NCBI GenBank assembly: GCA_947478395.1
Contig: CANJVR010000001.1
Location: 384,001 to 448,000, forward strand
Direction of reading: 5' to 3'
From: Opitutia bacterium
Lineage (GTDB): Bacteria > Verrucomicrobiota > Verrucomicrobiia > Opitutales > Opitutaceae
DNA: 64,000 nucleotides
Shown here: positions 40,401 to 43,400 of the stretch, piece after piece
Numbering within the stretch: the stretch's first letter is position 1
Layout of the letters: each line of letters opens with the position of its first letter
Made by a program: the position numbers

Positions 40401-43400
40401 ACGCACCCTCACTTTTTCCCAGCCTCCCGATCCGAATATGGCCGATCTCATCGTCAACGGCGGTCGCCCGCTCAGCGGCACCATCACGCCGTCCGGCAAC
40501 AAAAATTCCGTCCTGCCGATCTTCTGCGCGACGCTCCTCACCGACGAGCCGGTAACGTTGCAAAACGTCCCCGACATCACTGATCTCGACAAGCTCGTCA
40601 CGTTTTTCCGCGCGCAGGGTTCAAAAATCGACTGGGACCGCGCCTCCGGCGTGATGCGCGTGGACCACTCCGGTTTCCGCAGCGGCCTCGACGGTGACGA
40701 GCTGCCGCAGGACATGCGCTCGACCGTGTTACTGTACCCGGCGCTGCTTCACCGCCTCCGCCAGCTGACGATCCGCGCGAACACCAAGGGCTGTTCCCTC
40801 GGCGTTCGTGAGATTGACCCCCATCTCGAAATCCTCCGCGCGCTCGGCACGGTGATCAACGACGGCGAATCGCTCGTCCTCGCGTTGCCCAGCGGTTTCA
40901 CCGGCGCGCGGCACTGGTGCGACTATATGTCGGTGACGGTCACGGAAAACTTCGCCATGGCGGCCGCGATCGCGCAAGGCCGCTCCACGCTCATCAACGC
41001 CGCGAGCGAACCGCACGTGCAGGATCTCTGCGCGGCGCTCATCGCGATGGGCGCAAAAATCGACGGCCTCGGCACCTCGATGTTGCAGATCACCGGCGTC
41101 AAAAAATTACATGGCGCTACGATCAAAATCGGGACCGATTACCACGAGGTCGTCACGTTCCTCGCGCTCGGAGCCATTACCGGCGGCGAGGTGAGCGTCG
41201 TAAATTCGGTGCCGCATCACTTTGACCTCATCGCGCGTGCCTTTGCGAAACTCGGAGTCACGATTGAACATGAAGGCACCACCGCCATCGTGCGGCGCAA
41301 CCAGTCGCTCAAAATCCAACAACCGTTCACAAGCAACCTCCTCCCCAAGATCGAGGCCGCCCCGTGGCCGTATTTTTCCGTGGATCTTTTGCCGCTGTTG
41401 ATCGCGCTCAGCACCCGCGCCGAAGGGACGATTCATTTCTGGAACAAGGTCTACGAAAATGGTTTTTCGTGGATTCCCGAACTCGCAAAATTCGGCGCGC
41501 ACGCACTCGTAAGCGATCCGCATCGTATCGTGGTTTTTGGCAACCGCCCGCTGCGTCCGGCGATCGTCGATTCGCCCTACGTGATTCGCGCCGCCGTGGC
41601 GCTGACCATGGTCGCGGCCTCGATTCCAGGCCATTCGACCGTGCGCAACGCCGAGATTATTAAACGCGCCCATCCCCGCTTCGTCGAAAACCTCCGCTCG
41701 CTTGGTGCGGAGCTCGAATGGAAATGAACCTAAAACGATAAGAAGAGCCGGATGACGCGGAAAGATGCGAAGGCGGCAAAGTTCGGGGCGTGGTAATTAA
41801 TTTTTTGAGCGCCCGGCCCGTCAACGATTTCATCTCAACCCTTTCCTTCCCTAGCGTCTTTGCGCTTAATCCGCCCTCGCTCGACCTTGATCCTTCATGC
41901 CTGCTCCTGATTCCGCTCCCAAAGGCCTGGGCTTTATCGCCTCGTCGCTCGCTGCGCCGGTCTCGCCCGCCGAGGCCGCGCTGCGGCCACTTTCATTCGC
42001 GGACTTCACCGGCCAGCCTAAAACCATCGAACGCCTGCAAGTGATGGTCGGCGCCGCGAAACGCCGCGGAGATGCGCTGAACCACATTCTTTTTTCCGGC
42101 CCGCCGGGTCTCGGCAAAACCACGTTGGCGTTCATCCTCGGGGCCGAACTCGGCAAAAGCGTGCGCGTCACGTCCGGCCCGGTCATCGAGAAAGCCGGCG
42201 ACCTCGCCGGCTTGCTCACGAGCCTGGAGGAGGGCGATCTGCTGTTCATCGATGAAATCCACCGTATTCCGAAAACGGTCGAAGAATATCTCTACTCCGC
42301 GATGGAGGATTTCCGCCTCGATATCATGATCGACCAAGGGCCCAACGCCCGCAGCGTCCGCCTGTCGATTCCCCGTTTCACGCTGGTCGGCGCGACGACG
42401 CGCGCGGGTTTGCTGACGGCGCCGCTGCGCTCGCGGTTCACGTTGCAAACGCGCCTCGATTACTACGATCACGCGACGCTGGAAGGAATTGTGCGCCGGA
42501 GCTGCGGCCTGCTAAACGTGAGCATTGACGCCGGCGGCGCCGCGGAAATCGCCACCCGCGCCCGCGGCACTCCGCGTGTCGCCAACAACCTCATCAACTT
42601 CTGCCGCGACTACGCGCAGGAACGCGCCCAGGGCAAGATCACGAAACCCGTCGCCGCCGCGGCGCTCGAGTTGTTAGAAATCGACGCCGCCGGCCTCGAC
42701 GAAATGGACAAACGCATGCTCCGCGTGATGGCGGAAAATTATCGTGGCGGACCCGTCGGCATGAGCACCATCGCCGTGGCGGTCGGCGAGGAAGCTGAGA
42801 CGCTGGAGGAGGTGCACGAGCCTTTCCTCATTCAGGAAGGTTATCTCCAGCGCACGCCGCAGGGCCGCACGTTGACCGCCAAAGGCTACGCCGCAGTCGG
42901 ACTAAAGGCGGCGGTCGGGAGCGATCAAGGCTCCCTGCTTTAAAGCCTCACCGCGTGAGCCGAAGGGGTCTTCCCCGGCAGCCGTGCGCTGCCCCAGGGG
43001 AGAGCAGCACTCGGCGTTTCCGCCGTGATGAGTCCGGAGGTTCCCACCGCGATTCGCGTGGTTTTTCCGGAGCGAGACTTCCGCATAGACGATTTGGACG
43101 CGCCGGGTTGAAGCCGTATGGCTCGGAGCAAGCTGGACGCAGACTGAGAAGGCCAAGCCCCCGTCTAGCTTCAACTTGCAGCCCGCCGCCTGAGCCCCGT
43201 TGCGTTGCGGCGCAGTAGATTCAGCAGGGGGCACCCAGTGCCACGCGGACTGATCGCTCGACGCAAAATTTCTTTTGTCGAATGTGATCGGTAAACTGAA
43301 TAAGCCTCGATCGACTAAAATCTTCCATGCCCACCGCCAGCGCCAATCCGTCCGTCCCCGTCACTACGACGCCCCGCGTCGGCGATCTCGAAATCAAGGA

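Follow-up and report, generated by a model that had tools for sequence, protein, structure and literature searches.

Absence of RecG and RadA/Sms in Opitutales and a possible replacement of RecG by RecD2

A ruvB gene in an Opitutaceae genome raises the question of which enzymes migrate branched DNA in a bacterium that appears to encode neither RecG nor RadA/Sms. RadA has been called universal, or almost so, among bacteria, and RecG has been reported in 99% of genomes larger than 1 Mb. The gene lies in a stretch of 64,000 nucleotides, hereafter the window, of an assembly of 3.31 Mb in nine contigs (98.8% complete; contigs are denoted by C, genomes by G, loci by L and families by f, the genome of the window being G000). 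A preliminary description of this DNA had concluded that both proteins are missing in all Opitutales searched, which would leave RuvAB as the only classical branch-migration system.

The ruvB locus and the repair inventory of its genome

The genes on which the analysis centres are given below, the first two in window coordinates and the others by contig.

40438..41727, + strand: murA-like gene directly 5' of ruvB, no known recombination role
41897..42943, + strand: ruvB, encoding the 348-aa ATPase of Holliday-junction branch migration; the gene that marks the finding
C2:290397-290993: ruvA, outside the window, on another contig
C7:79432-80037: ruvC, outside the window, on another contig
C2:235373-237757: recD2, outside the window
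C1:210233-211789: comM, outside the window

In line with the preliminary description, the window gene is an intact, ordinary ruvB. Its product scored 460 bits against NF000868 (cut-off 282) and 420 bits against TIGR00635 (cut-off 299), the profile match lying at C1:425993-426895 on the contig scale, and RuvA and RuvC are encoded in the same genome. The motifs of the ATPase, from Walker A and B through sensor 1 and the arginine finger to sensor 2, were all found, using motif strings that we presume to describe these sites. RuvC passed its Pfam cut-off (94 bits against 22) and scored 89.5 against TIGR00228, just below the required 100.65. In the order, 10 of 30 ruvB loci have a murA-like gene as their 5' neighbour, and an uninformative search for a promoter-like site before murA-ruvB found none. 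Elsewhere in the window, positions 43327-44544 encode a protein of 405 aa whose N-terminal domain resembles adenylate kinase, at scores below all cut-offs, and is followed by a long C-terminal extension, while 38951-40279 is a 442-aa low-complexity frame, rich in Pro, Arg and Gly, without NCBIfam matches.

Neither RadA nor RecG was detected in this genome. The RadA profile TIGR00416, positive in 14/14 controls, gave no match, tblastn with E. coli RadA returned nothing at E≤0.1, the RadA zinc-finger pattern occurred in no frame, and the five KNRxG matches were all without a zinc finger. No protein combined a C4 zinc finger, a RecA-like core, the KNRFG motif and a Lon-like C-terminus with a TIGR00416 score of at least 403 bits. 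Similarly, no frame of approximately 690 aa with an N-terminal wedge and a full-length match to the RecG profile TIGR00643 was found. The best match to this profile (392 bits, profile positions 207-607) lies in a 1144-aa frame and was rejected as RecG on account of its UvrB-interaction, CarD and TRCF domains, which identify it as Mfd. With an HMM built from 30 RecGs of the phylum, no match to the wedge region surpassed E 1.2 over 29,611 six-frame ORFs. A stand-alone wedge domain was also discarded, as its one weak match (E 0.004) is inside an unrelated 1007-aa secreted-type protein.

The remaining inventory had been given as RecA, RecFOR, AddAB, RecQ, PriA and RuvABC. All of these were confirmed (RecA, RecF, RecR, AddA/AddB, RecQ, PriA, RuvA and RuvC besides the window RuvB) except RecO, which was not located with an E. 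coli RecO query, its candidate being rejected when it turned out to be AcpS. The genome also encodes RecJ, RecN, UvrD, RarA, RecD2, ComM, DprA, ComEC, a YraN-like protein, an SSB with an acidic tail, RNases HII and HIII, two DinG/XPD-type helicases, a DUF3516 helicase and three SNF2 proteins. The RNase HIII and HII genes are adjacent (G000:C8:43212-45404), and the RNase HI motif was not found; in E. coli, the recG rnhA combination is lethal. Three further loci were recorded: a probable defence island (G000:C4:154000-167000), where genes for a PLD-SNF2 helicase, an Eco57I-type methylase and a reverse transcriptase follow one another; an SNF2 helicase gene overlapping the start of a same-strand SET-domain gene (G000:C2, locus L153:3540-7091); and a frame of 2028 aa carrying a UvrA-type Walker motif (G000:C7:84709-90792), about twice the usual UvrA length, in addition to a 966-aa one on C2 of the same genome.

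Absence across the order and probable loss of RecG in the phylum

The double absence of RecG and RadA in the order is real. Among 201 genomes at least 90% complete, from 35 families and 103 genera, none exceeded the TIGR00416 cut-off of 403 (best 49 bits) or the TIGR00643 cut-off of 659 (best 411 bits), and 13 more order genomes in a draw from the whole phylum were likewise without both. The earlier claim, made on a sample about five times smaller, was thus borne out, and the genomes concerned reach 8 Mb. In sister orders, the same RecG search recovered RecG over its full length (profile 1-629) and was therefore sensitive enough. In the order, the only strong match to the RecG profile is Mfd: at E≤1e-40, 161 genomes had matches, of which 159 had exactly one, and among the 150 of 163 matches listed all start at or beyond profile position 161, nearly all in frames of 1050-1450 aa. 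The 13 matches outside these 150 include a pair of partial ones in each of the genomes G012 and G127. Most order genomes of 0.8-1.8 Mb from families f4, f7, f18, f19, f26, f32, f34 and f35 had no Mfd match.

That RecG or RadA is present but too divergent to be recognized, or is hidden in assembly gaps, is scarcely credible. Just four to five candidates were scored per genome, an insertion-split RecG escaped the strict threshold in three sister-order genomes (G525, G546 and G558), and a published survey lists RecG=1 for three Opitutaceae (Bernheim 2019, PMC6452273). However, a split RecG yields extra matches at E≤1e-40, yet 159 of the 161 order genomes, single-contig 100% complete ones included, had one, as did 21/21 genomes of the own family in the RecG search of the phylum. 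The match of Mfd, for its part, spans 64% of the TIGR00643 profile with an E of about 1e-115, enough to pass a half-coverage filter, which we take to be the default behind the survey's settings. As the survey used TIGRFAM profiles, mostly at default settings, a cross-match with Mfd is the likely source of its three entries, which probably arose by counting Mfd, and its table has RecG=0 for Coraliomargarita (PMC6452273). In surveys, the annotation of Mfd as RecG is a likely error, which is flagged here. RecGs with a long in-frame insertion near profile 325-340, possibly an intein, were seen in G525:C8, G546:C4, G558:C3, G554, G454, G535 and G562; intein motifs were found in none of four long RecG frames.

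The absence had been presented as a feature of Opitutales, but it is not specific to the order. RadA was found in 0/251 genomes of the phylum draw, RecG-bearing orders included (best 52 bits). Supplementary rows of a published survey give radA=0 in 3/3 Verrucomicrobiota and 7/7 Planctomycetota, phyla that its main text does not name (PMC13663708); one Chlamydiota row has radA=1. RecG was present in 7/167 genomes of other classes (160/167 without) and, at E≤1e-124, in 125/185 sister-order genomes, corrected to 129 (about 56 without) by adding the three insertion-split RecGs and G276, counted from three uninspected matches.

RecG is most likely ancestral in the phylum and was lost repeatedly, also outside the order, as suggested by the RecG clade, the recJ-recG pairs and the remnant-free recJ loci. 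In a FastTree analysis of 75 sequences, the RecGs of the phylum grouped in a single clade, with a support of 0.994, apart from the named outgroups, which were without Planctomycetota and Chlamydiota, 10 of 48 first-tree rows and many outgroup loci being left out. The named Chthoniobacterales RecG nested among RecGs of its own class, and a regain of RecG by transfer is unsupported since the RecGs form one clade. Further, recJ lies directly 5' of recG in 10 of 58 recG loci, from eight families, and yajC-secDF-recJ is mostly intact in recG-less loci (24/29), none of the 29 showing a recG remnant beside recJ. A replacement gene at the former recG position was also considered and rejected, as the genes after recJ vary. 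Finally, in a ComM tree two recG-less genomes fall among recG-bearing relatives.

RecD2 as a near-alternative to RecG

The distribution of RecD2 was determined on a panel of 80 genomes (51 recG-less, 29 recG-bearing) chosen by recG status before the RecD2 search. RecD2 was found in 51/51 recG-less genomes (order 24/24, sister orders 14/14, other classes 13/13) versus 7/29 recG-bearing ones. In a second search, of a 221-genome class draw, it was found in 34/36 order genomes, the two misses (G169 and G359) being insertion-split RecD2s, and, among 185 sister-order genomes, in 52/56 recG-less versus 25/129 recG-bearing ones, these 25 keeping both genes; with the 38 panel genomes removed, the sister-order values were 38/42 versus 20/105. 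Taken over all order genomes tested, RecD2 was present in 54/55. Two tiny order genomes of 0.8-0.9 Mb (G003 and G098), without Mfd, RecF and RecR, keep RecD2, RuvB, ComM and one SNF2 protein.

The same alternation was observed between and within families. All 31 genomes of f37 have recG and none recD2, the 23 genomes of f86 have recD2 and none recG, and in f38, f58, f61 and f89 tested recG-bearing members are without recD2 and recG-less members have it. The Fisher values of 6e-14 and 5e-22 take no account of kinship, which inflates them, and the number of independent contrasts is small (four families). Under the strict thresholds used (RecG E≤1e-124; RecD2 E≤1e-100, with four candidates scored), most negatives could hide split genes; five apparent exceptions do fit the pattern, through split RecD2s in G169 and G359 and split RecGs in G525, G546 and G558. 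Four sister-order genomes were without both genes at these thresholds, namely G273 and G294 (both 0.9 Mb), G501 (95% complete) and G553 (92%); G017 has neither as well.

The RecD2 of the own genome scored 773.7 bits against TIGR01448 (cut-off 500) with PF23139, PF14490, PF18335 and PF13538, and displays an N-terminal OB and helix-hairpin-helix extension, an SF1B core and an SH3 insert. Its gene flanks contain no recBC, an AddA/AddB-type pair being encoded elsewhere. In 32/32 RecD2s the Walker A site and the helicase motif of the C-terminus are intact, and the RecD2s of the order form a clade. In-frame insertions near profile 260 and 463, in frames of up to about 870 aa, were noted in the own-family RecD2s of G169 and G359 (L410-L416), G092 and G403. 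Among three loci with comM near recD2 or recG (L435 of G282:C9, L406 of G538, and G473:C44), it adjoins recD2 in two genomes and is at most 2.4 kb from recG in the third.

Probable replacement of RecG, its alternatives and a family without RuvABC

We consider it reasonably probable (about 0.6) that RecD2 replaces RecG, judging from its distribution and from work in another species. The basis in our data is formed by the absences, the near-complementary distribution, the intact RecD2 motifs, the monophyly of RecG and the swaps within families. This support is correlative, RecD2 being the one that fitted among five candidates tried (ComM, SNF2, RecF and RecD2, and RadD in the own genome only). 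In a phylum without RadA/Sms, the ancestor probably had both RecG and RecD2, and lineages would then have shed one or the other, almost never both while recombinational repair persists. The order would have lost recG early, out of the recJ-recG pair, and kept RuvABC and RecD2. RecD2, an SSB-associated 5'-3' helicase, would most likely do the work of RecG and RadA beyond the reach of RuvAB, that is, migrate or dismantle three-strand D-loop and gap-repair intermediates, limit RecA filaments and restrain PriA-dependent restart, while RuvAB(C) would serve four-way junctions and ComM/YraN transformation D-loops.

That the RecD2s of this phylum do this job, and on which substrates, we infer from the biochemistry of other species. 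In Bacillus subtilis, RecD2 migrates branches (three-strand intermediates) and binds RecA and SsbA, its depletion lowers viability more than 500-fold without recG or ruvAB, and its role is reported to overlap with those of RecG and RuvAB (PMC8989531, PMC10804225; Torres 2017 as cited therein). The own genome resembles B. subtilis in the OB, HhH, SF1B and SH3 domains of RecD2, AddAB, RarA and RNases HII and HIII (Ramos 2022, PMC8989531; PMC10804225). In contrast to B. subtilis, which keeps RecG, RadA and RecD2, the phylum is without RadA and has RecG and RecD2 largely as alternatives. The activity of the SF1B helicase RecD2 at reversed forks has been described as elusive, so it may replace only part of the work of RecG.

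In E. coli, the recG radA combination is reported as "not quite synthetically lethal" and rescued by loss of recF or recO (Bonde 2023, PMC10870727), its colonies being tiny and poorly growing and extra RuvAB also rescuing it (Cooper 2015, PMC4357459; PMC10870727). The order lacks the same genes and has RecA, RecF, RecR, PriA, UvrD, RecQ and RuvABC; as recF is kept in 20/24 genomes, the order has a configuration that is harmful in E. coli. Unlike the E. coli mutant, it is naturally so, mostly with RecF, AddAB and RecD2, the last of which is absent from E. coli and, when introduced there from another species, can be toxic.

The view of RuvAB as the sole classical system holds insofar as one of the three textbook systems is left, but RuvAB is not the sole branch-migration motor. 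It is not left alone, since RecD2 occurs in 54/55 order genomes and ComM in 23/24 of the panel, both of which migrate branches in vitro in other species. Nor is RuvAB retained throughout: ruvB was found in 195/201 order genomes (in G018 of f19 it is missing with ruvA and ruvC present, which was treated as a gap, and likewise in G170), and family f18 has none of RuvA, RuvB and RuvC (0/4 each). We consider it unlikely that RuvAB suffices by itself, for example through high expression, with the RecG/RecD2 pattern due to shared ancestry or to a third factor, of which the system for end resection would be an example. The near-universal ruvB of the order is compatible with such sufficiency, as is a result from E. 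coli: in the radA recG strain, extra RuvAB suppresses sensitivity to UV and to AZT, though only in part for ciprofloxacin and at high AZT (PMC4357459). The occurrence of RecD2 is known to follow the absence of RecBC, in line with a third factor, but shared ancestry leaves the swaps inside four families unexplained.

Another motor might substitute instead, such as RecQ, a YoaA/DinG-like or XPD-like helicase, a Hel308-like DUF3516 protein, a Suv3-like helicase or an SNF2 translocase, which appears quite unlikely. All these candidates occur in the own genome, and SNF2 proteins in 23/24 order genomes, tiny ones included; on the panel, however, SNF2, the one candidate among them surveyed across genomes, showed no association with recG status (46/51 recG-less versus 25/29 recG-bearing), and the own genome has no full-length RadD orthologue, its best match (24% identity) being in a type I restriction subunit. 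We also consider it very unlikely that ComM, which resembles RadA in structure, is at the same time the branch-migration motor for repair in this RadA-less phylum, even though it occurs in 77/80 panel genomes and in 4/4 f18 genomes, which have no RuvABC. It was not associated with recG loss (49/51 versus 28/29), G015 (one contig, 98%) and G230 have neither ComM, RecG nor RadA, and repair in Vibrio cholerae does not require it. The own ComM reached the TIGR00368 threshold of 362 bits or more and has Walker A/B and zinc motifs. In both genomes read whole, ComM is accompanied by DprA, YraN and ComEC, the own YraN candidate being below the NCBIfam cut-off (83.7 versus 109).

Alternatively, the need for RecG could have been removed rather than met by another protein, with toxic intermediates avoided through loss of RecF or of the PriA helicase activity, both known suppressors of recG phenotypes in E. 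coli. RecF is indeed present in 21/24 recG-bearing versus 4/14 recG-less sister-order genomes, and G017 has neither RecF nor RecR, and its PriA is helicase-dead. As a general explanation this is highly improbable: the order keeps RecF in most genomes, the trend is reversed in other classes (6/13 recG-less versus 1/5 recG-bearing; 30/51 versus 22/29 on the whole panel), and the PriA motifs, read in the own genome and G017 only, are intact in the former, so that the own genome already contradicts this explanation. A contribution in f80, f85, f86 and f18 is nevertheless conceivable. RecF is missing in 9/9 recG-less genomes of f80, f85 and f86, which may be one clade, as in the E. coli suppressor pattern.

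Family f18 comprises four genomes of three genera (G017, G047, G070 and G090; 0.9-1.0 Mb, 91-94% complete, none closed), of which G017 was read whole. All four have recA and comM, and ruvA, ruvB, ruvC, recG and radA are 0/4 each. When proteins of the own genome served as tblastn queries against G017 (942 kb in 11 contigs), DprA, YraN, ComEC, pilus ATPases, RarA, RecJ and MutSL were found but not RecF, RecR, AddAB, RecQ, UvrD, RecN, UvrB or RecD2, and the PriA of G017 (C8:162389-164296) is without Walker A, DExH and motif VI. RecD2 is thus gone where repair recombination is gone too, and the simplest reading is that f18 retains RecA for transformation alone. The own genome and G017 resemble the described ComM/YraN system (Nero, 10.1101/147660; PMC13663708) in their ComM, YraN, DprA, ComEC and pilus ATPases. 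Unlike in the known hosts of that system, in G017 it is the sole recognizable RecA pathway, RuvABC, RecG, RadA, RecD2, RecF, RecR and AddAB being absent. The genotype also echoes the E. coli ruvABC recG priA300 recF strain, in which recombination is restored from 0.0061 to 0.25 (PMC5055574).

In a published survey, the mollicutes, Chlamydiaceae and Desulfovibrio vulgaris are RecG-less, and the same three groups are separately named as carrying a RecD on the RecD2 side, the two genes not being linked there (Rocha 2005, PMC1193525); D. vulgaris is RecG=1 in the other survey (Bernheim 2019, PMC6452273), a conflict. These groups resemble the order in having RecA and RuvAB without RecG, with RecD2 named in them, but, unlike the order, are mostly reduced parasites, and RadA was not analysed in that survey (Rocha 2005, PMC1193525). 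Two RecA-positive genomes without RuvAB had RecG in that survey, whereas f18 has neither (PMC1193525). No report of the double absence in the group, or of the RecG/RecD2 pattern, was found in titles and abstract openings, a scope outside which most subscription papers lie.

The component proteins are all known; their combination is unexpected. The essential role of RecG has long been disputed (PMC5055574), and the cellular role of RecD2 is described as poorly known. Tentatively, at somewhat short of even odds, RecG and RecD2, which belong to different superfamilies, would be interchangeable for one essential fork and D-loop task, such that RadA-less bacteria with recombinational repair must keep one of them. 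This rule may extend to other RecG-less groups, hidden there by Mfd counted as RecG, and in f18 RecA would then serve transformation only, completed by ComM/YraN without RuvABC, RecG and RadA, making the family a natural test of whether ComM/YraN can do so without RuvABC. An order without RecG and RadA, in a phylum alternating between RecG and RecD2, would point to the task common to both enzymes as the indispensable function, which is testable, and the pattern predicts which of the two genes is essential in which lineage.
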